IMG/VR virus record: IMGVR_UViG_2657244961_000006 | From: a virus | Lineage: Duplodnaviria; Heunggongvirae; Uroviricota; Caudoviricetes | Length of the DNA: 9,766 bases | Direction: 5' to 3' (one strand) | Shown here: piece by piece, positions 2,635-9,766 of the stretch | How the letters are laid out: every line of letters starts with the position of its first letter | Numbering within the stretch: the first letter of the stretch is position 1 | Made by a program: the position numbers and the translations under genes | The notes under the pieces: generated by a model | What the model was told of the DNA's origin: nothing | Database searches by the model: none | Seen by the model: the letters and a program-made list of their open reading frames with translations, nothing else

Positions 2635-2707
2635 ATATACAGCAACGCCCCGCAGTGCTGGAACACATGCAGGGCGTCTAACCAAACCGTTAAACGAGGT
2701 AACGATT

Positions 2708-2905
2708 ATGGCTGGAACACAGCATACCCCACGACTAGCGCACACACAAACGGCCTTTGTGTGGCGTTTTCTGGCACTGAGTGCCGGAGAATCCCAAATC
2801 ATCCACGTCACCGCCTGGACGGAAAGCGAAGCGCGTAACCATTGCCCGTCCGGTTGTGTCGCTGTATTCGCCGCCCGTATTCGTCAGGAGGTGCGCCATG
2901 CCTGA
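2708..2905 (+). CDS. Small Icd-like / Ash-family-like protein (65 aa), first gene of the rightward replication operon
   Basis: ATG at 2708 with a GAGGT Shine-Dalgarno ~10 nt upstream; this is the C-terminal 65 codons of the long ORF 1877-2905. Product MAGTQHTPRLAHTQTAFVWRFLALSAGESQIIHVTAWTESEARNHCP... resembles, from memory, the small Icd-like proteins annotated in P4-type prophages. Family assignment is unverified. Confidence 0.55.
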   Translation: MAGTQHTPRLAHTQTAFVWRFLALSAGESQIIHVTAWTESEARNHCPSGCVAVFAARIRQEVRHA

Positions 2906-3224: not shown

Positions 3225-3524
3225 ATGAGAACGTATTTATCTGGCTTGACTGCCAGCGGTTATGCACATCCCAAAATTATCCCCGGCGCTATTTATCGGG
3301 ATAAGAACGGCAACAGAGTAACAGTAAAATCGATAATGTTTGACCGTGTGTACTTTATTCGTGATGGCTATTCATTTCATAGCTCGCTGAACGTGGAGAT
3401 CTTTATTTGCAGATTCCGGCGGGAAATCCCGCCTTCCAGAAATAACCATGTGTCACGTGTGGATGTGGATAAAAAACTACAGGAACTGAAAAACATGATT
3501 GCCGCGTGGAGAGAGCAGAAATGA
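3225..3524 (+). CDS. Hypothetical protein (99 aa), translationally coupled to the primase
   Basis: ORF 3225-3524 with a GGGGA SD upstream; its stop (TGA 3522-3524) overlaps the primase start (ATG 3521-3523) in an ATGA arrangement. Confidence 0.55.
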   Translation: MRTYLSGLTASGYAHPKIIPGAIYRDKNGNRVTVKSIMFDRVYFIRDGYSFHSSLNVEIFICRFRREIPPSRNNHVSRVDVDKKLQELKNMIAAWREQK

Positions 3525-5338
3525 AAAAAGCGCCAAATTTAAAACACCAACCGCGTGACAAAATGACGGAAGTCATCATTTTTGCGGGTAGTGATGCGTG
3601 GGCACATGCGAAGCAGTGGCAGGAACAGGACGGGCGACTGGCTGGCGATAACGTGCCACCTGTCTGGCTTGGAGAGCAACAACTTGCCGAACTGGACAAC
3701 CTGCAAATCGTACCGGACGGACGCTATCGCGTGCGTCTCTACCAGGCGGGGTTATTGCGTCCGGGGCTTGTTAATACCATCGGGCAGAAACTGGCAGCGG
3801 CAGGTGTCAGGGATGCTGATTATTACCCTGAAGGAATGCACAGCCAGAAACGGGAGAACTGGCGCGAATATCTGGAACGTGAACGGGCAGAGCAGGCGGA
3901 AAAGAAAAAGGTAGTTGAACTGCCTGTAAAGAAAAAAGAGCGGGTAAAAGACGATAACGCTTCATCACTGGCGCTTAACCAGATGGGAGCAAGTCAACGC
4001 GGCGAAGTTCTCCTGGCACATTATGGCGGTGAACTGGCGATTCATGCTGACTCTGACACTGTTCACCATTACAACGGCGTTGTATGGGAGCCAGTACAGG
4101 ATAAAGAATTACAGCGAGCTATGGCACAGATTTTCATTGATGCGGAGATCAGCTATTCGCAGAACGCCATTAAATCGGCGGTCGATACCATGAAGTTAAG
4201 TTTGCCTGTAATGGGGAATACAGCCCGTAACCTGATTGGATTCAGTAACGGGGTATTTGATACCAGAACAGGTAATTTTCGGGAGCATAACAAAAACGAC
4301 TGGTTGTTAATTGCCAGTGAATTACCTTTCAGCCCACCAGCAGAGGGGGAAACGCTGGCAACACATGCGCCGAATTTCTGGAAGTGGTTACGCCGTTCGG
4401 TGGCTGAGAATGACCGCAAGGCGGATCGCGTACTGGCTGCATTATTCATGGTGCTGGCGAACCGGTACGACTGGCAGTTATTCATTGAGGTAACAGGTCC
4501 AGGGGGAAGTGGTAAAAGCGTGATGGCGGAGATTTGCACCATGCTGGCGGGTAAGGCCAACACAGTATCGGCAAGCATGAAGGCGCTGGAAGATGCAAGG
4601 GAACGCGCGTTAGTGGTTGGCTTTTCGCTGATTATCATGCCGGATATGACCCGCTACGCTGGTGATGGGGCAGGAATTAAGGCCATTACAGGCGGTGACA
4701 AGGTGGCAATTGACCCGAAACACAAAGCCCCCTACTCAACGCGTATTCCGGCAGTAGTGCTGGCGGTTAACAATAACGCCATGTCATTCAGTGACCGCAG
4801 CGGGGGGATCTCACGTCGTCGGGTGATATTCAATTTTTCGGAAGTTGTACCGGAGAACGAACGCGATCCAATGCTGGCGGAAAAAATAGAAGGTGAGCTG
4901 GCGGTAGTGATTCGCCATCTGCTTACACGGTTTGCTGACCAGGACGAAGCCAGACGCCTGTTATATGAGCAGCAGAAATCTGAAGAAGCACTGGCGATAA
5001 AGCGAGAGGGGGATTCGCTGGTGGACTTCTGCGGCTATCTCATGGCGTCGGTAATGTGTGATGGCCTGTTAGTGGGTAATGCTGAAATTGTGCCATTCAG
5101 CCCACGCAGGTATCTCTATCATGCCTATCTGGCTTATATGAGGGCACATGGGTTTGGTAAACCTGTAACACTGACGCGCTTCGGTAAAGATATGCCGGGG
5201 GCAATGGCGGAATATGGCAGGGAGTATATGAAACGGAAAACGAAGCACGGTTTGCGTTCAAACGTGACACTGACGGAGGAATCAGAAGACTGGATGCCAT
5301 CATGTGTATCGGTCACTAATGACGATAGCAAAAATTAA
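3521..5338 (+). CDS. P4-family phage/plasmid primase with SF3-type helicase domain (605 aa)
   Basis: ATG at 3521 (GGAGAG SD 8 nt upstream) inside ORF 3506-5338. Walker A GPGGSGKS, Walker B-like VVGFSLIIMPD, D5-N / primase C-terminal-like central region. Immediately followed by the cognate-looking iteron array. Confidence 0.85.
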   Translation: MKKAPNLKHQPRDKMTEVIIFAGSDAWAHAKQWQEQDGRLAGDNVPPVWLGEQQLAELDNLQIVPDGRYRVRLYQAGLLRPGLVNTIGQKLAAAGVRDADYYPEGMHSQKRENWREYLERERAEQAEKKKVVELPVKKKERVKDDNASSLALNQMGASQRGEVLLAHYGGELAIHADSDTVHHYNGVVWEPVQDKELQRAMAQIFIDAEISYSQNAIKSAVDTMKLSLPVMGNTARNLIGFSNGVFDTRTGNFREHNKNDWLLIASELPFSPPAEGETLATHAPNFWKWLRRSVAENDRKADRVLAALFMVLANRYDWQLFIEVTGPGGSGKSVMAEICTMLAGKANTVSASMKALEDARERALVVGFSLIIMPDMTRYAGDGAGIKAITGGDKVAIDPKHKAPYSTRIPAVVLAVNNNAMSFSDRSGGISRRRVIFNFSEVVPENERDPMLAEKIEGELAVVIRHLLTRFADQDEARRLLYEQQKSEEALAIKREGDSLVDFCGYLMASVMCDGLLVGNAEIVPFSPRRYLYHAYLAYMRAHGFGKPVTLTRFGKDMPGAMAEYGREYMKRKTKHGLRSNVTLTEESEDWMPSCVSVTNDDSKN

Positions 5339-5352
5339 ACTTATGGAATAAC

Positions 5353-5581
5353 TGTTCACCACTGTTCACCCTGTCATAAATATCTTTTATATCAGTATAT
5401 TATAGGGTGAACAGTTATTTATGAACTGTTCACCAAACTATTCACTGTTCACCTTTTTGATTGTTTATTGAGCTTCAAGGGTGAACAGTGGTGAACAGTT
5501 GGTGAATAGTTTTTGTGAAACTGTTCACCCCTTAACATTATGAATTAAAAGAGAAAATATCAAAAGGTGAACAGGTGAAGG
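5353..5581. repeat. Replication-origin-like iteron array: about 9 perfect copies of TGTTCACC / GGTGAACA in both orientations plus degenerate copies, interspersed with AT-rich DNA
   Basis: Direct copies at 5353, 5363, 5427, 5446, 5522; inverted copies at 5406, 5480, 5490, 5566; degenerate ggtgaata at 5501. The octamer TGTTCACC matches, from memory, the type I iterons bound by P4 alpha protein at ori/crr. Confidence 0.8.
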
Positions 5582-5723
5582 GTTAAAACGCAAAAATTTT
5601 AATTTACTGCTGTGAGATAAAGCCTATGACAGCGAAGCACACCAAAACAACAGGCGGGGAATGATGATCCGTACGGGGATAACATACCGTTTTAAGCAAC
5701 GAGTAACAGAAGCCGGAGCAATC

Positions 5724-5804
5724 CGCCTTTTTTATGGGTCCTCCCGGTGGAGTGGTCTGCCACGGGGCGGGAGCGTCGCGGAAAAAGGCTGGTTTTTGCA
5801 TTTT
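5724..5804 (+). other. cos-like site A: ~80-bp element resembling the lambda cosQ-cosN junction, with candidate cohesive-end 12-mer GGGCGGGAGCGT (5765-5776)
   Basis: Ungapped match to the remembered lambda right-end/left-end junction (gggtcctttccggtg...acg GGGCGGCGACCT cgcggg). Here gggtcctcccggtgg...cacg GGGCGGGAGCGT cgcgg, conserving the flanks and 8 of 12 positions of the 12-mer. About 90 percent identical to element B. Confidence 0.6.
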
Positions 5805-5853
5805 CATGGCGGCGGCAGCATGTGTGATAATTTATTGATAATTAAAAGTTATT

Positions 5854-5951
5854 TCTGTTTTCACCTGTACAATATTTTTTTCTCCCTGTCATTAGACCAG
5901 TTTGCAATTAATTGAAATATATAAATAAATCTGTTTTTCACCTGCCAGGTG
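5854..5951 (+). repeat. Two direct repeats tctgtttt(t)cacctg (5854-5867, 5930-5944) plus palindrome CACCTGcCAGGTG (5939-5951) downstream of cos-like site A; candidate cosB-like terminase-binding sites
   Basis: Read directly. They loosely recall the lambda cosB R-site region (ctgtttttgtccgtgg, from memory). Confidence 0.4.
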
Positions 5952-5993
5952 GAGTTGCCTGTGTCAAAACGTGTTCAGATGGCGGGATATTTA

Positions 5994-6017
5994 TGCCGGA
6001 TTTTCTCCGGCTTTTTT
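5994..6017 (+). terminator. Rho-independent terminator (gccgga-ttttc-tccggc followed by TTTTTTGTG)
   Basis: 6-bp GC stem, 5-nt loop and T-run read directly. Sits between cos-like site A and the 6120 gene. Confidence 0.65.
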
Positions 6018-6119
6018 GTGTCTGAATCTCATTAATCTATTTTTATGATAGAAATATGTTTATCTACCACTTTTATCGATCAATAATGTGCACAGTTTAG
6101 TCAGTAAGAGGAAGTTACT

Positions 6120-6326
6120 GTGAGTTGTATTAATGACCTGAACACGGGCGATATCAGGGGTGGTTCCGTTCATCTGGATGCGCAGACCGTTATGCGCCTT
6201 AAGCAGTACAGGATCGACCATATAAATCATCATCCTGACAAACCATTACCAGGTGTGGCGCAGATTGTCAGACATGCCGTAAACACCTGGCTTAATCAGA
6301 ATGGTTTTGCATCGGTGGGGGAATAA
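6120..6326 (+). CDS. Small putative RHH-like DNA-binding protein (68 aa, GTG start), translationally coupled to the downstream protease/capsid-like gene
   Basis: Strong SD AAGAGGAAG (6105-6113) about 6 nt before GTG 6120; stop TAA overlaps the next ATG (TAATG at 6324-6328). Product contains a beta-strand-like GGSVHLDAQTV followed by helical segments. Confidence 0.5.
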   Translation: MSCINDLNTGDIRGGSVHLDAQTVMRLKQYRIDHINHHPDKPLPGVAQIVRHAVNTWLNQNGFASVGE

Positions 6327-8239
6327 TGAATCGCTGGTACACCATTAAGGCGGCGGATGTTCGTGGAGCGGCGGATATATCTATCTATGAGGAGATTGGC
6401 GGCTTCGGTGTTACTGCAAAGCAGTTCGCGGAAGACCTGAAAGCCCTTGGCGATGTTTCACATATCAATCTGAGGATCCATTCACCAGGTGGTGATGTGT
6501 TTGAAGGCATCGCCATCTATAACCTGCTACGGAATCATCCGGCAGACATTACGGTTTATATCGATGGTGTTGCGGCTTCAATGGCTTCGGTGGTCGCAAT
6601 GGCTGGCGATCGTGTTGTGATGCCGGAAAACGCCATGATGATGATACATAAGCCGTGGGGTATCTCTGGCGGAAATGCTGGTGATATGCGTGATTATGCT
6701 GATTTGCTGGATAAGGTGGAAACCGTGTTAGTCCCTGCTTATGCCAGAAAAACGGGCAAATCAGCACAGGAAATTACCGCCATGCTGGAAGATGAAACCT
6801 GGATGGACGGGAAAGAATGCCTTAAGCACGGTTTTGCTGATGAATTGTTGCCATCCGTCAGAGCAATGGCGCGAATTGAATCGAAGCGCACAGGAGATTT
6901 TTTACATATGCCGGAAACCATTAAAGGAATGATTACACCGCCACAGGGAGCGGCAAATATTGCTGGTAATGAACAGAAACGCATCAATGGAATAAGTGAA
7001 GTGTTTAGCCTGTTCGGCAGTCGTTACGACGGGATCAAAATGGCGTGTCTGGAAGATGCATCATGTACACCGGAAATGGCCCGTGAAAAGCTGTTGAACG
7101 AGCTGGGGCGCGAGTCCACGCCATCCAATAAAAATACCCCGCCTCATATCTATGCCGGAAACGGAAACATAACAGGTGATGCAATTCGTCAGGGGCTTTA
7201 TTCCCGTCTTGGGTATGAACGCCCTGAACGAGGCAACCCTTACGCGATGATGAGCCTTTTTGAAATGGCCCAGGCATCACTGGTTGATCGTGGTATCACT
7301 GTGAGTGGTTTTATTAATCGCTCGCAGGTTGTTAATGCGGCTTTTACACACAGCAGCAGTGATTTTTCTCATATTCTGGCTGGTGGGGCTGAAAAATCTG
7401 TACTGAAAGGCTGGCAGGACAGCGGCGAAACGTTCCAGAAATGGACGCGTACCGGTTCGCTTTCAAACTTTCATGAAGCAAAGCGCGTTGGTCTGAATGG
7501 TTTTTCAAAGCTGGATAAAGTACCGGAAGGTGCGGAATATAAATACATCACCACCAGCGATAAAGGTGTACCTATTGCGCTGGCCACGTACGGGAATATT
7601 TTTTCCGTTACCCGTCAGGCCATTATCAACGATGACCTGACCCAGTTAACTACAATCCCCATGGCGATGGGACGCGCAGCCGCCAGAACAGTTGGCAATC
7701 TGGTTTATCTCCTGTTAACCAGCAACGGCAAGTTTACGGATGGTAAAGCGTTATTCCATGCCGATCATAAAAATCTTATTGCGAAGGATATGGACATGGT
7801 GGGGCTTGATGAAGCCCGTAAGCTGATGCGCCTCCAGGAGGATGCTAACGGCGACTCACTGAATATTACCCCTGCTTTTGTTCTGGTCCCTGCCGCGCTG
7901 GAATCTGCCGCGCGTCGCGCCATTCTGTCATCGTCATCAGTCTTTCCGGTTGGTGATGAGGGCACTATCAATCAGAACCCCGGCATCATTAACGTTGTGA
8001 AAGATATGGCAGAAGTAATTGTTGAGCCACGTCTTGATAAGGCCAATAGCAAGGAATGGTATGTAGCCGCAGCTAAGGGGATGGACACAATAGAAGTCGC
8101 TTATCTTGATGGTATGGATACGCCATATCTTGAGGAGCAGGTGGGCTTTACTGTTGATGGTGTCGCCTGGAAGGTGCGCATAGATGCAGGTGTCGCGGCC
8201 CTCGATTATCGTGGATTGCTGAAATCGAATGGAGCATGA
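6326..8239 (+). CDS. Fusion protein (637 aa): N-terminal ClpP-like (S14) prohead-protease domain plus large C-terminal domain, possibly an HK97-fold major capsid-like domain
   Basis: ORF 6326-8239. Residues ~20-190 show the ClpP signature (GDVFEGIAIYN, GVAASMASVVAMAGD with the candidate catalytic Ser, MMMIHKPWG with the candidate His, later acidic residues). The C-terminal ~430 aa are long enough for a scaffold plus capsid domain; the capsid assignment is from general resemblance only. Confidence 0.8.
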   Translation: MNRWYTIKAADVRGAADISIYEEIGGFGVTAKQFAEDLKALGDVSHINLRIHSPGGDVFEGIAIYNLLRNHPADITVYIDGVAASMASVVAMAGDRVVMPENAMMMIHKPWGISGGNAGDMRDYADLLDKVETVLVPAYARKTGKSAQEITAMLEDETWMDGKECLKHGFADELLPSVRAMARIESKRTGDFLHMPETIKGMITPPQGAANIAGNEQKRINGISEVFSLFGSRYDGIKMACLEDASCTPEMAREKLLNELGRESTPSNKNTPPHIYAGNGNITGDAIRQGLYSRLGYERPERGNPYAMMSLFEMAQASLVDRGITVSGFINRSQVVNAAFTHSSSDFSHILAGGAEKSVLKGWQDSGETFQKWTRTGSLSNFHEAKRVGLNGFSKLDKVPEGAEYKYITTSDKGVPIALATYGNIFSVTRQAIINDDLTQLTTIPMAMGRAAARTVGNLVYLLLTSNGKFTDGKALFHADHKNLIAKDMDMVGLDEARKLMRLQEDANGDSLNITPAFVLVPAALESAARRAILSSSSVFPVGDEGTINQNPGIINVVKDMAEVIVEPRLDKANSKEWYVAAAKGMDTIEVAYLDGMDTPYLEEQVGFTVDGVAWKVRIDAGVAALDYRGLLKSNGA

Positions 8240-8267
8240 CAACAAGGCGGTACTTTGAACACGTGGG

Positions 8268-8431
8268 GCGGCGAGCTGCCGCACCATATTCCTGAACAAC
8301 TGAGCAAACGAGAGAGGTATACCGACAAATGGCAGCGACGCACACACTCCCTCTGGCGTCACCGGGCATGGCACGCATCTGCCTTTACGGGGATTTACAA
8401 CGATTTGGCCGCCGCATCGATCTTCATGTGA
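8268..8431 (+). pseudogene. Start-less 3' remnant of a lambdoid tail-tip assembly protein K-like gene, overlapping the start of the I-like gene
   Basis: The frame is open from 8240 to the TGA at 8429-8431 with no start codon, encoding ...GELPHHIPEQLSKRERYTDKWQRRTHSLWRHRAWHASAFTGIYNDLAAASIFM. This resembles the C-terminus of lambda K as I recall it, and in lambda K overlaps I in the same way. Confidence 0.5.
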
Positions 8432-8970
8432 AAACGGGGGCCGAAGCCATCCGGGCGCTGGCCATGCAGATCCCAGCGTTTCGTCAGAAACTGAGCGATG
8501 GTTGGTATCAGGTGCGTATTGCCGGGCGTGATACAGGCGAAAACGAATTATCAGCCCGTCTTAATGAACCGCTGGAAAATGGTGCCGTGATCCACATCGT
8601 ACCGCGTCTGGCTGGTGCCAAAAGTGGCGGCGTGTTTCAGGCGGTGCTTGGTGCGGCGCTGATTGCTACGGCAATCTGGATGCCAGGAATCAGTATCGCT
8701 TTCAGTGACATTCTCTTTTCAATGGGGGCGGCGATGACACTTGGTGGTGTTGCACAGATGCTGGCACCGAAAGCCAGCACAGCAACAGCCAGCACCACGG
8801 ATAACGGTAAGCAGAACACCTATTTCTCCTCTCTGGATAACATGGTTGCCCAGGGCAATGTTATGCCTGTTCTGTACGGTGAAATGCGCGTCGGGTCGCG
8901 GGTGATTTCGCAAGAGATCAGCACAGCAGATGAAGGGGATGGCGGCCAGATTGTGGTGATTGGTCGCTGA
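8329..8970 (+). CDS. Lambdoid tail-tip assembly protein I homologue (213 aa)
   Basis: ORF 8329-8970. N-terminus MAATHTLPLASPGMARICLYGDLQRFGRRIDL... and C-terminus ...DNGKQNTYFSSLDNMVAQGNVMPVLYGEMRVGSRVISQEISTADEGDGGQIVVIGR closely match my recollection of phage lambda gpI. The central hydrophobic segment is shorter than in lambda. Confidence 0.8.
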   Translation: MAATHTLPLASPGMARICLYGDLQRFGRRIDLHVKTGAEAIRALAMQIPAFRQKLSDGWYQVRIAGRDTGENELSARLNEPLENGAVIHIVPRLAGAKSGGVFQAVLGAALIATAIWMPGISIAFSDILFSMGAAMTLGGVAQMLAPKASTATASTTDNGKQNTYFSSLDNMVAQGNVMPVLYGEMRVGSRVISQEISTADEGDGGQIVVIGR

Positions 8971-8987
8971 TACAAAACGTTTTATGT

Positions 8988-9010
8988 AAAACCGCCTGCG
9001 GGCGGTTTTG
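8988..9010 (+). terminator. Rho-independent terminator (aaaaccgcc-tgcg-ggcggtttt) after the I-like gene
   Basis: GC stem flanked by an A-run and a T-run, read directly. The same hairpin follows gene I in lambda, as far as I recall. Confidence 0.7.
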
Positions 9011-9041
9011 TCGCTCATGGAGCATAAACAATAGTGACAGT

Positions 9042-9124
9042 CGCCTTTTTTGGGTGGGTCCTCCCGGTGAGGTGGCCTGCCACGGGGCGGGAGCGGCGCG
9101 GAAAAAGGCTAGTTTTTGCATTTT
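9042..9124 (+). other. cos-like site B: second copy of the cosQ-cosN-like element, with candidate 12-mer GGGCGGGAGCGG (9085-9096), directly upstream of the Nu1-like gene
   Basis: About 90 percent identical to element A over ~80 bp. The downstream AT-rich DNA (ttcgtcat..., gtttttattt) resembles the lambda cosB/I-site region as remembered. The position relative to the small terminase gene mirrors lambda cos-Nu1. Confidence 0.65.
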
Positions 9125-9280
9125 TATTCGTCATCATCATCTTTCTATTATATTGAATTTTAAGTGTTTTTATTTTTGGTATGTTAATTTTGCTTATTTT
9201 GTGTTCAACATGCAGCGCGTTTTTTGACCTTTTTTAAAAGATATTTGCAAGATGCATTTTTAAAACATTCTGGAGCGGGT
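9125..9280 (+). promoter_or_regulatory. AT-rich cosB-like / promoter region upstream of terS
   Basis: A+T-rich 150 bp between cos-like site B and the terS start; contains ttcgtcat and gtttttattt motifs; no individual promoter elements called. Confidence 0.4.
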
Positions 9281-9766
9281 ATGGATCGGGAACTGAAAAA
9301 TCTGATGCTGAACATTAACCAGCTGGCGGCGATAGCGGGAATATGTCGCCAGACTGCGGCGGCAAGGCTGAAAAATATCCAGCCAGCCGGAGGACATGAC
9401 AAGCTGAAACTCTATCGGGTGACTGACATTCTGACCTGTTTTCTTGATCTTCCCGTTCCGGCATCACTGGAAGAAATGGAGCCACACGACCGTAAGGCCT
9501 GGTATCAGTCCGAACGTGAGCGCCTCAAGTTCGAACAGGAAACGGCGCAACTCATACCCGCCGATGATGTGCGAAAAGAGATGGCTATATGGGGAGAAAT
9601 CGTAAGCGAGGAACTGGAAAAACTCCCCAGTATTCTGGCACGTGATGTTGGGCTTAAACCGATGGCAGTAAACAGAGTGCAGTCAATTATTGACGATTTG
9701 TGTAATCAGATTATCAGCCGGATGGTAAAAAATGACGTAGTGAATGAGGTCGCAAAACAGGCATGA
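9281..9766 (+). CDS. terS: Nu1-like small terminase subunit / packaging-specificity protein (161 aa)
   Basis: ATG at 9281 (GGAG SD 6 nt upstream) inside ORF 9224-9766. N-terminal winged-HTH-like segment LNINQLAAIAGICRQTAAARLKN...LKLYRVTDIL parallels lambda Nu1 (VNKKQLADIFGASIRTIQNWQ...EVLYDSAAVIKWY, from memory), followed by a helical ERERLKFEQETAQL region. Confidence 0.7.
   Translation: MDRELKNLMLNINQLAAIAGICRQTAAARLKNIQPAGGHDKLKLYRVTDILTCFLDLPVPASLEEMEPHDRKAWYQSERERLKFEQETAQLIPADDVRKEMAIWGEIVSEELEKLPSILARDVGLKPMAVNRVQSIIDDLCNQIISRMVKNDVVNEVAKQA

Follow-up and report, generated by a model that had tools for sequence, protein, structure and literature searches.

A lambdoid tail-operon fragment with an intact gene I beside a cos site in a phage satellite island of Escherichia coli

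The stretch of DNA analysed here (the window, 9,766 nucleotides) carries a block made up of the last 53 codons of the tail gene K (K'), the whole of gene I, and the I–J spacer with its hairpin, which nucleotide and protein comparisons show to derive from the tail operon of helper phages of the lambda/mEp460 type (Table 1). Judged by its gene content, the element around this block is a cos-type Gram-negative PICI, a phage-parasitic island of E. coli, of 10.8 kb. It contains int, AlpA and primase genes, a ClpP-protease/capsid fusion gene, two cos sites and a TerS-like DUF1441 gene, and in one assembly the same element forms a circular record of 10,790 bp. An inward-facing tyrosine integrase gene (Phage_integrase and Arm-DNA-bind_3 domains, 1–1239) lies at one end and is followed by Phage_AlpA (Pfam, 1570–1866); the island has its own primase module, with the Pfam domains D5_N, DUF5906 and Pox_D5 in the protein encoded at 3506–5338, and this adjoins a repeat-rich region of nested direct and inverted repeats (5337–5552).

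Table 1. Features of the late region and of the captured block (window coordinates).
Feature	Coordinates	Strand	Description	Basis
cos site, copy A	5728..5807	+	upstream of the orf68–capsid operon	
Protease–capsid fusion gene	6326..8239	+	ClpP-like prohead protease / HK97-type major capsid protein	Pfam CLP_protease 2e-35, Phage_capsid_4 3e-54; RefSeq annotation of sister islands
Left junction	8240..8262	+		
K' remnant	8263..8431	+	3' end of tail gene K, start-less, without catalytic domains	
Gene I	8329..8970	+	tail tip assembly / 'insertion' protein gpI, 213 aa, allele class A	
I–J spacer	8971..9025	+	phage intergenic spacer, hairpin 8988–9009	alignments, fold, spacer comparison
Right junction	9026..9047	+		
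cos site, copy B	9048..9127	+	directly 3' of the insert	
DUF1441 gene	9281..9766	+	first gene past cos	Pfam DUF1441 3e-35; RefSeq annotation

The two cos copies form an 89% direct repeat, and each can be aligned to the cos junction of lambda; EcCICFT073, too, is reported to have two cos sites (PMC6739421). Copy B includes a cosQ-like sequence, GGGTCCTCCCGGTGA, at 9056–9070 and a cosN-like sequence, ACGGGGCGGGAGCGGCGCGG, at 9082–9101. The cos region is homologous to the genome ends of mEp460-type phages, such that base 1 of the linear record LR595868 falls at about window position 9080. The DUF1441 gene is TerS-like, as in mEp460-type helpers, and is labelled 'terminase small subunit' in phages phi458 and 569R4; a sequence search of its product against PDB sequences gave no match to an RppC or lambda TerS chain at E up to 1. 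The mEp460-type phages, to which both cos and DUF1441 are homologous, also rank among the best matches to the K–I block. Beyond the fusion gene, I and DUF1441, the late region holds only a 93-aa ORF, and the portal, large terminase and head–tail connector genes of a complete head and packaging set are absent. Four island copies are ~10.0 kb long and four are 10.8 kb; as both lengths would lie within what a 44.5-kb helper can usually package, we set aside a tuning of island size for cos packaging.

When the whole window and its 8100–9200 segment were compared with 50,697 phage records (megablast), nucleotide similarity to lambdoid phages was confined to 8263/8269–9023/9025, which agrees with the abrupt edges that an earlier note, made from the letters alone, had placed near 8268 and 9025. 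In total 206 phage records match the block. Identity is 85–88% to phage records (e.g. Evi 88.0%, mEp460 86.3%) and up to 93.3% to E. coli prophages over the same span; lambda itself agrees at 609 of 800 aligned columns (about 76%). A 13.5-kb record named 'Escherichia phage 500465-3' (CP025902.1) matches the block as well. No J homology was found 3' of the block, in keeping with the earlier description of a fragment without J.

The I-like ORF scores 82.1 bits against Pfam Lambda_tail_I (PF06805; cut-off 23.8, residues 14–97), its residues 1–213 align with residues 1–223 of the lambda gpI chain 8iyk_I (phmmer, E 3.7e-104), and residues 126–212 match the resolved part of gpI in the 9e7m chains (E 2e-43). 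By these alignments it is a full-length, collinear homologue of gene I, intact as first described. Lambda gpI is a virion component, a trimeric tail-tip plug bound to gpJ (PMC10721106, PMC11101478; PDB 8iyk and related entries), and the gpJ-binding C-terminus is conserved in the island protein. The island and lambda proteins (PF06805; PDB 8IYK, 8IYL, 8K35, 8XCG, 9E7M) share the Lambda_tail_I domain, the hydrophobic helices, the plug segment and the gpJ-binding strands, and the genes share the overlap with the end of K and the downstream hairpin. Unlike its lambda counterpart, the island gene does not lie between a complete K and J; it sits between the satellite capsid fusion and DUF1441, with K cut to 53 codons and with no L, M, H or J. 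The hydrophobic region of its product is also 10 residues shorter than that of lambda gpI, and the shorter allele occurs in natural prophages too. The exact I protein of the window is present on 23 contigs, with the same island architecture at all ten places listed.

The K' frame corresponds to residues 147–199 of the 199-residue lambda K protein, with 48 of 53 residues identical (BLASTP). Full-length K has Prok-JAB and NLPC_P60 domains; K' lacks most of JAB and NlpC/P60 and gave no domain match in Pfam, and in every sister island its PGAP label is 'phage tail protein, incomplete, missing N-terminus'. It contains the native ribosome-binding region and the start of I. The K' frame is in phase with the TGA of the capsid gene (8237–8239) and runs without a stop to 8429–8431; the phasing has a chance expectation of 1/3. 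Both the start-less K remnant overlapping I and its phasing with the capsid stop had been noticed from the sequence. At the other end, the I–J spacer, examined by alignment, by folding and by comparison of 31 island with 85 phage copies, ends in ATGGAGCAT (9017–9025), where phage homology stops. The spacer hairpin, AAAACCGCC-TGCG-GGCGGTTTT, is common to phages, and in phage Ayreon a 'terminator' feature is annotated under the match to this region; the intrinsic-terminator rule does not call it, owing to the GTC that follows its four Ts.

The insertion lies in the terminator hairpin just 3' of the capsid gene, 23 nt upstream of cosQ, and the empty site is intact in the block-free island L003 and in ~160 other genomes, all of which have the uninterrupted terminator. 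In L003 this hairpin folds at -17.3 kcal/mol (z -2.4); it is lost at the left junction of the window (-8.3 kcal/mol, z 0.22). Of the left arm of the native island terminator, CAACAAGGCGG is left there, followed by a filler of about 12 nt, TACTTTGAACAC, that has no counterpart in the block-free island or in the phage K genes examined. All 33 block-bearing island loci that were retrieved share exactly this junction, which argues for one capture. At the right junction, alignment with L003 reveals, in degenerate form, the sequence found 3' of the capsid stop in block-free islands (AAACAATAG...AGTCGCC and a T-run), corresponding to the right arm of the disrupted terminator, and there is an 11-nt microhomology, ATGGAGCATGA, between the phage I–J spacer and the 3' end of the capsid gene (8229–8239, including the stop codon). 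From these junctions we conclude that the block entered once, by illegitimate recombination into the terminator hairpin. Among the 80 IMG/VR loci nearest to the island gpI there are no independent captures of I only: the island alone lacks both full K and J, and three other loci have a shortened K match and keep J. Exact junction patterns searched against one genome per species (GTDB) gave no match to either junction, and thus no evidence of the block outside E. coli.

Among 5,426 complete E. coli genomes the block is present in 23 and the capsid–cos–DUF1441 module in about 187, so that some 12% of related islands carry the block. The remaining 88% or so do without it, which indicates that the satellite life cycle can proceed in its absence. 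The earlier note had proposed a captured lambdoid K'–I–hairpin fragment, and had named a lack of nucleotide similarity to lambdoid K–I regions and presence of the block at this position in all related islands, with an unrelated and well-characterised function, as findings that would speak against it; the comparisons reveal instead a clear similarity with sharp breakpoints, the gene content proposed, and presence in a minority of the islands, and neither contrary finding was made. The carriers occupy at least five attachment sites (cspD/clpS, prophage terL, rcnR/thiM, nfeF/tRNA-Ile(mug), and ypjC/tRNA-Ile), and it follows from comparison of the islands that the block has travelled with the capsid–cos–DUF1441 late module into satellites with at least five different integrases and attachment sites.

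Island copies of the block are ~98% identical to one another, and K–I-like DNA is present in 4,403 of the 5,426 genomes. The I alleles in islands fall into at least three classes (213, 215 and 223 aa) that are mosaic, with different internal breakpoints inside identical junctions, from which it follows that phage alleles have repeatedly been recombined in. To judge from these mosaics, homologous recombination with lambdoid prophages resident in the host repeatedly replaces the interior of the block, and all island I alleles are ordinary phage alleles that are also present in prophages. Four complete-genome copies that we examined and one IMG/VR contig are embedded in a helper and co-oriented with its tail genes. 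Satellite and helper alleles differ in strains C6, A20 and KSC64, the satellite allele carrying ...APKASTATASTTDNGK... and the helper alleles ...APKARMPTAASTDNGK... or ...APKAKTPKVSATDNGK....

Gene I is intact in 31 of 31 island copies, even in L022, whose capsid gene is frameshifted, and in L012, whose DUF1441 gene has an internal stop. Polymorphic codons in allele class A comprise six synonymous and two non-synonymous. The last 45 codons include eight positions at which the window base is rare among phages, five of them synonymous, and two of the three amino-acid changes are V to I and are found in about 90% of island copies. Pairwise dN/dS values for I are 0.11–0.26, although these low values may largely come from the phage lineages. 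In the 223-aa class the recent singletons are mostly non-synonymous (A128V, A132T and S99L, versus one synonymous). Even with no selection in the island, gene conversion with intact phage copies as donors could maintain the open ORF.

The explanation we prefer, at about even chances, is that the single illegitimate capture placed I where it would be co-transcribed with the capsid gene, its product being built into helper tails as an extra supply of gpI. With the capsid-gene terminator destroyed, the late-operon transcript would extend into I, and since the native ribosome-binding region inside K' is kept, normal gpI would presumably be translated from it. A promoter scan of the + strand from 5300 to 9766 predicted no sigma-70-like site, so expression of I would rest on read-through. 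K' is probably a non-functional stump, retained because it carries the translation start of I. The conserved C-terminal part, which binds gpJ and plugs the tip, suggests that satellite gpI would be assembled into helper-made tails, adding an extra and often allelically different plug protein. That the satellite supplies gpI, one of the roles proposed earlier, is plausible given an ORF intact in every copy, a destroyed capsid terminator and a conserved gpJ-binding C-terminus. On the other side, the helper already encodes I, which counts against this explanation. Any fitness benefit is probably small and conditional, as most sister islands lack the block. We think it rather unlikely that satellite gpI goes beyond redundancy, i.e. 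that it replaces or mixes with the helper allele and remodels the plug and membrane-insertion element, with effects on the ejection trigger or recipient range, or that it rescues the tails of I-defective cryptic prophages. If it did so, this would be the first case of a non-capsid-forming satellite contributing a component of the tail tip.

A lesser but real possibility is that the block is neutral, an accidental capture that hitch-hikes in a successful late module, with recent origin and gene conversion keeping I open and the protein changing nothing. A single origin, carriage by only about 12% of the family, the near identity of the island copies, the lack of convergent captures among the best 80 IMG/VR loci and the mostly non-synonymous recent singletons of the 223-aa class all accord with this, and conversion, which the mosaic alleles prove to be frequent, has donors almost everywhere. 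It accounts less well for an I that stays intact in 31 of 31 copies while adjoining island genes are sometimes broken, for the 6:2 synonymous skew of class A, for the mostly synonymous or conservative phage-rare positions at the 3' end, and for persistence over at least five attachment-site lineages. The earlier note also proposed a homology patch for recombination with lambdoid helpers. In this reading selection acts on the ~760 bp of shared DNA as such, which would serve recombination with helper tail operons and lead to gene gain, cointegrates or helper damage. Of the three roles proposed in the note, recombination alone has direct sequence evidence: exchange with lambdoid phages is evident in the repeated replacement of alleles within fixed junctions, and the helper-embedded, co-oriented copies would favour it. 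Two human-gut metagenome contigs (L036 and L037) join the satellite capsid gene and the island left junction to phage I–J–lom–stf, the product expected of a crossover between a terL-embedded satellite and its helper. These contigs come from short-read assemblies, though, and may be chimeras across the near-identical K' stretch, and there is no such recombinant in the 5,426 complete genomes (no match at query 1–1024 without the right flank). The crossover would moreover delete the satellite packaging genes or yield an over-length cointegrate, with no obvious gain, and selection on homology alone would not maintain the I reading frame. Exchange is therefore well seen, but not as the reason for retention, and we give this function little probability.

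Interference with the helper, also suggested earlier, is very unlikely. Satellite gpI, often of a non-helper allele, would here poison helper tail-tip assembly or DNA ejection, and in three of the four helper-embedded cases the two proteins differ at 12–16% of residues, clustered in the hydrophobic helices and the plug segment. As gpI acts as a trimer (PMC10721106), mixed trimers are conceivable, and a prophage protein reported to stop invading phages from assembling their tails offers an analogy (PMC10884400). We find no support for poisoning of helper tail tips, however: it would also harm a satellite that depends on the same tails, the island alleles are all ordinary phage alleles found in prophages, the gpJ-binding C-terminus is conserved, and in one helper-embedded case the alleles are 98% identical. 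Decoration of the capsid is more improbable still. Read-through of the capsid TGA-C would add 64 K' residues to a few subunits, or K' might be translated from a TTG at 8255 that has AAGG upstream; every copy keeps this frame open over 8240–8431. It is open, though, because it is K's own frame and partly overlaps I, it would be in phase by chance in one case out of three, K' has no domain, and block-free islands with the same TGA-C context gain only 5 codons. Against these alternatives, extra supply of gpI to helper tails remains our preferred reading.

Gram-negative PICIs have been described to capture late genes in their 'Late zone' (NAR Genom Bioinform 2023, PMC10111431), and the block is a clear example of this known satellite habit. 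As there, a late gene similar to prophage DNA at the nucleotide level follows the replication zone and is found in some but not all of a set of otherwise collinear islands, and some carriers are embedded in prophage terL. The usual captures in that survey are capsid genes and large clusters, in contrast to the single tail-tip gene here, for which the junctions are resolved to the base pair and later allelic exchange is visible; the tail-tip markers M and L were in none of the satellites surveyed. EcCICFT073-type cos PICIs (Fillol-Salom et al. 2018, 2019; PMC6739421) share the int–alpA–primase order, the ~10–11 kb length, two cos sites with helper-like cosQ/cosN, and a gene beside cos that redirects packaging, putatively so in the present island. 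They differ in that the cos neighbour in the present island is DUF1441, for which no similarity to RppC or lambda TerS chains from PDB was detected, that the head module is mEp460-type rather than lambda-type, and that I is carried. The cf-PICIs (bioRxiv 10.1101/2022.09.08.507074; Cell Host Microbe 2023) likewise encode virion structural proteins and need helper tails, but encode the full set of head and packaging genes and lack tail parts, whereas this island has a protease–capsid fusion, a TerS-like gene and one tail-tip gene. In literature on PICIs or satellites with DUF1441, gpI or 'tail assembly protein I' we found no description of the block, nor a Lambda_tail_I entry in the portions of the HE-PICI preprint supplements that were consulted.

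Satellites are generally viewed as stealing tails rather than contributing to them. Here a tail-tip structural gene is intact across several integrase lineages, in about one in eight islands of the family, and is still exchanging with helper phages. The availability of carriers, non-carriers and differing alleles makes the function of a captured late gene, the rate of satellite–helper recombination and the alteration of tails by a satellite amenable to experiment, and even as a passenger the block would be a clean case of microhomology-mediated gene capture beside cos. In an Rfam search of the whole window (E up to 1) nothing was found in or beside the block; elsewhere there are two sub-threshold matches, one symR-like (2641–2713) and one to a plant miRNA model.

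A segment of a lambdoid tail operon lies between the capsid gene and the DUF1441 gene of the satellite. When the whole window was compared with 50,697 phage records, tail-operon similarity was confined to this block, at 85-88% identity and with sharp ends, and E. coli prophages reach up to 93.3% over the same span. The earlier note had described a captured fragment with a start-less K remnant, an intact gene I and no J, and that description holds. K′ (the 3′ stump of tail gene K) corresponds to lambda K residues 147-199 and lacks both a start and a recognisable domain; gene I is full-length (Pfam Lambda_tail_I, 82 bits; E 3.7e-104 to the lambda gpI chain 8iyk_I); and J is found neither in nor after the block. 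The K′ frame is, as also claimed, in phase with the capsid gene stop, a TGA-C, and open as far as the natural stop of K. Lambda itself is about 76% identical. The retained I–J spacer hairpin, likened to that of lambda, is indeed common to phages and carries a terminator annotation in one phage record, but it does not satisfy the intrinsic-terminator rule of the prediction tool.

Features of the satellite element and its K′-I block in the window
Feature	Coordinates	Remarks
Tyrosine integrase gene	1-1239	
AlpA gene	1570-1866	
YlcI/YnfO-like gene		minus strand
Icd-like gene and DUF4222 gene		between the YlcI/YnfO-like and primase genes
D5/P4-type primase gene	3506-5338	
Repeat-rich, origin-like stretch	5337-5552	just 3′ of the primase gene
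cos copy	5728-5807	upstream of the orf68-capsid operon
ClpP-protease/HK97 capsid fusion gene	6326-8239	637 aa
Candidate K′ frame from TTG	8255-8431	58 aa
K′-I block	8263/8269 to 9023/9025	
Gene I	8329-8970	213 aa
I–J spacer hairpin	8988-9009	
cos copy	9048-9127	upstream of the DUF1441 gene
DUF1441 gene	9281-9766	after the block

The window is nearly the whole of a small integrative element, which in complete E. coli genomes sits between cspD/yljB and clpS. The same island, including the K′-I block, is also recorded as a 10,790-bp circular 'plasmid', pZ1323HEC0475-3 (NZ_CP148328.1), from a human E. coli isolate whose chromosome holds lambdoid K-I copies as well; this record is probably an excised, replicating satellite caught in assembly. 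Direct and inverted repeats based on GGTGAACAGTT and AACTGTTCACC are densely nested in the stretch after the primase gene and are probably the iterons of the satellite replication origin.

An 80-nt direct repeat, 89% identical between its two copies, aligns with lambda cosQ and cosN, and each copy contains a cosQ-like GGGTCCTCCCGGTG(A/G) and a cosN-like ACGGGGCGGGAGCG(G/T)CGCGG, indicating two cos sites. These and the other features of the element match the cos-type Gram-negative phage-inducible islands (PICIs) typified by EcCICFT073, for which two cos sites are reported and transfer needs only one (PMC6739421). From the second copy into DUF1441 the sequence shows homology to the ends of mEp460-type lambdoid phage genomes, where the DUF1441 family carries the annotation small terminase. 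In EcCICFT073 the corresponding place is occupied by Rpp. The DUF1441 protein may be a satellite TerS or Rpp analogue for an mEp460-type helper; a sequence comparison with the solved RppC and lambda TerS chains in the PDB detected no similarity. Because portal, large terminase and connector genes are absent, the element is not a capsid-forming PICI.

In block-free sister islands the capsid stop is followed directly by a strong hairpin and T-run (GGGCGGC-GATA-GCCGCC-TTTTTTT; -17.3 kcal/mol, z -2.4), and in the window this terminator is split by the block. At the left side a remnant of the hairpin, CAACAAGGCGG, is followed by 12 nt of unassigned filler and then by phage K sequence. At the right side phage homology stops in ATGGAGCAT, after which the island sequence normally 3′ of the capsid stop recurs in degenerate form, ending in AGTCGCC and a T-run, and then comes cosQ. 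Eleven identical nucleotides are common to the I–J spacer of Evi-type phages (TTATGGAGCATGAGG) and the 3′ end of the capsid gene (AATGGAGCATGACA), and this microhomology could plausibly account for the right junction. In all 33 fetched island loci that carry it the left junction has one and the same sequence, which is absent from every phage K gene examined, indicating that the block was captured once; the ancestral state is the block-free one, in which the hairpin is perfect. The filler also creates a TTG with AAGG ahead of it, from which the K′ stump could be translated as a short peptide.

Of 5,426 complete E. coli genomes, 23 have the capsid-K′-I-cos-DUF1441 arrangement and about 187 the capsid-cos-DUF1441 module, a count that should include the 23 carriers since fragments separated by no more than 1,050 nt are joined in counting; the block is therefore carried by roughly 12% of the family rather than by all related islands. 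The integrases and attachment sites of the carriers are of at least five kinds: cspD/clpS, rcnR/thiM, nfeF/tRNA-Ile near mug, ypjC/tRNA-Ile near gab, and the inside of the large-terminase gene of a lambdoid prophage, the last being the helper-embedded configuration of the Williams group (PMC10111431). Four carriers (loci L006, L009, L011 and L015) have this last location and are co-oriented with the prophage late genes (e.g. L006 1144-14538). The surrounding prophages encode a small terminase of the DUF1441 family, a fused ClpP/capsid protein and a lambda-type tail that includes K, I and J of its own, which identifies the helper type. A gpI identical to that of the window occurs on 23 contigs, and all ten places listed have the same island architecture, at four chromosomal sites. 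The junction is also on six IMG/VR contigs and six metagenome contigs, and neither junction was found in other taxa in a search of one genome per species.

Island copies of I fall into at least three allele classes, of 213 aa (the window's own), 223 aa (lambda-like) and 215 aa (Evi-like), each also present in ordinary prophages. Breakpoints between island-type and phage-type sequence vary from copy to copy and both junctions are constant, and so homologous recombination with lambdoid phages has replaced the interior of the block several times. Donors are plentiful, as 4,403 of the 5,426 genomes contain K-I-like DNA. In three of the four helper-embedded cases the I products of the satellite and of the surrounding prophage diverge at 12-16% of residues, chiefly within the hydrophobic helices and the plug segment, and in the remaining one they are 98% identical.

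Lambda gpI is seen by cryo-EM as a virion component, three copies of which make up a tripod-shaped plug inside the tail-tip lumen, tied to gpJ by beta-sheet augmentation and supporting the C-terminus of the tape-measure protein; LamB binding leads to plug disassembly, its two hydrophobic helices are proposed to enter the outer membrane, and gpK was not found in virions (PMC10721106, PMC11101478). The window gpI keeps the resolved C-terminal part of lambda gpI almost unchanged and so should fit a lambdoid gpJ. The insertion removed the terminator of the capsid gene, gene I keeps its native upstream region within K′, and no promoter of its own is predicted for it. In the simplest reading, I would be transcribed together with the capsid gene and its product would enter the pool used for helper tails.

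Gene I is likely to be under selection in the island. It is intact in all 31 island copies where the gene lies within the fetched sequence, and still intact in island locus L022, where the capsid gene is annotated as frameshifted, and in L012, where DUF1441 (11811-12296) is annotated with an internal stop. The pairwise dN/dS of island against phage alleles, 0.11-0.26, equals that of phage against phage, and polymorphic codons of the 213-aa class comprise six synonymous and two non-synonymous. Within the last 45 codons the window base is rare among 85 phage copies at eight positions, five synonymous and three changing an amino acid, two of the latter being conservative V-to-I changes present in about 90% of island copies. 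These patterns are consistent with constraint. A large part of the variation may derive from phages, where selection had already filtered it, and conversion can mend damage to I without selection in the island. This repair, the limited share of the family that carries the block, and the mostly non-synonymous recent singleton changes of the 223-aa class speak for neutral carriage, the main alternative to selection on I.

The interpretation in the earlier note is partly supported. Recombination with lambdoid phages does occur, and a homology patch as a selected trait draws on this exchange and on two human gut metagenome contigs (L036 1-6178 and L037 1-5273), in which the satellite capsid gene continues through the island-type left junction and K′-I into phage J-lom-stf, replacing cos-DUF1441. 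These joins could be real deletions in which a satellite embedded in terL recombined with its helper through the I block, or short-read assembly chimeras; against the patch, no such join is present in the 5,426 complete genomes. Poisoning of tail assembly by the satellite gpI would harm the satellite too, and no positive evidence for it was found. Translation could in principle run past the capsid stop into K′, with the phase of the frames the one feature in its favour.

What the block is and where it comes from are secure. Gram-negative PICIs have been described as capturing helper late genes, including large clusters, in their Late zone, with a proposed cycle of large capture, loss and retention of a few genes (PMC10111431), and the block is a new, well-resolved case of this process; a literature search found no publication mentioning an I-bearing PICI. 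What is unusual is the nature of the captured gene, whose product is a structural protein of the tail tip.

Rfam gave no match to a C4/IsrK-type immunity RNA in the window. A sub-threshold match to the SymR antitoxin RNA (2641-2713, minus strand; 26.9 bits against a gathering threshold of 61, E 0.1) falls between the YlcI/YnfO-like and Icd-like genes and is probably due to chance. CP025902.1 ('Escherichia phage 500465-3'), an unannotated 13.5-kb record, matches the K′-I block at 87% in its positions 5986-6745, with the rest of the window unmatched; it may be part of a prophage or a further small element that bears I. Outside the block, the only other match among the phage records is the primase region (3971-5605), at 78% to vB_KppS-Ant, a 16.5-kb induced element.
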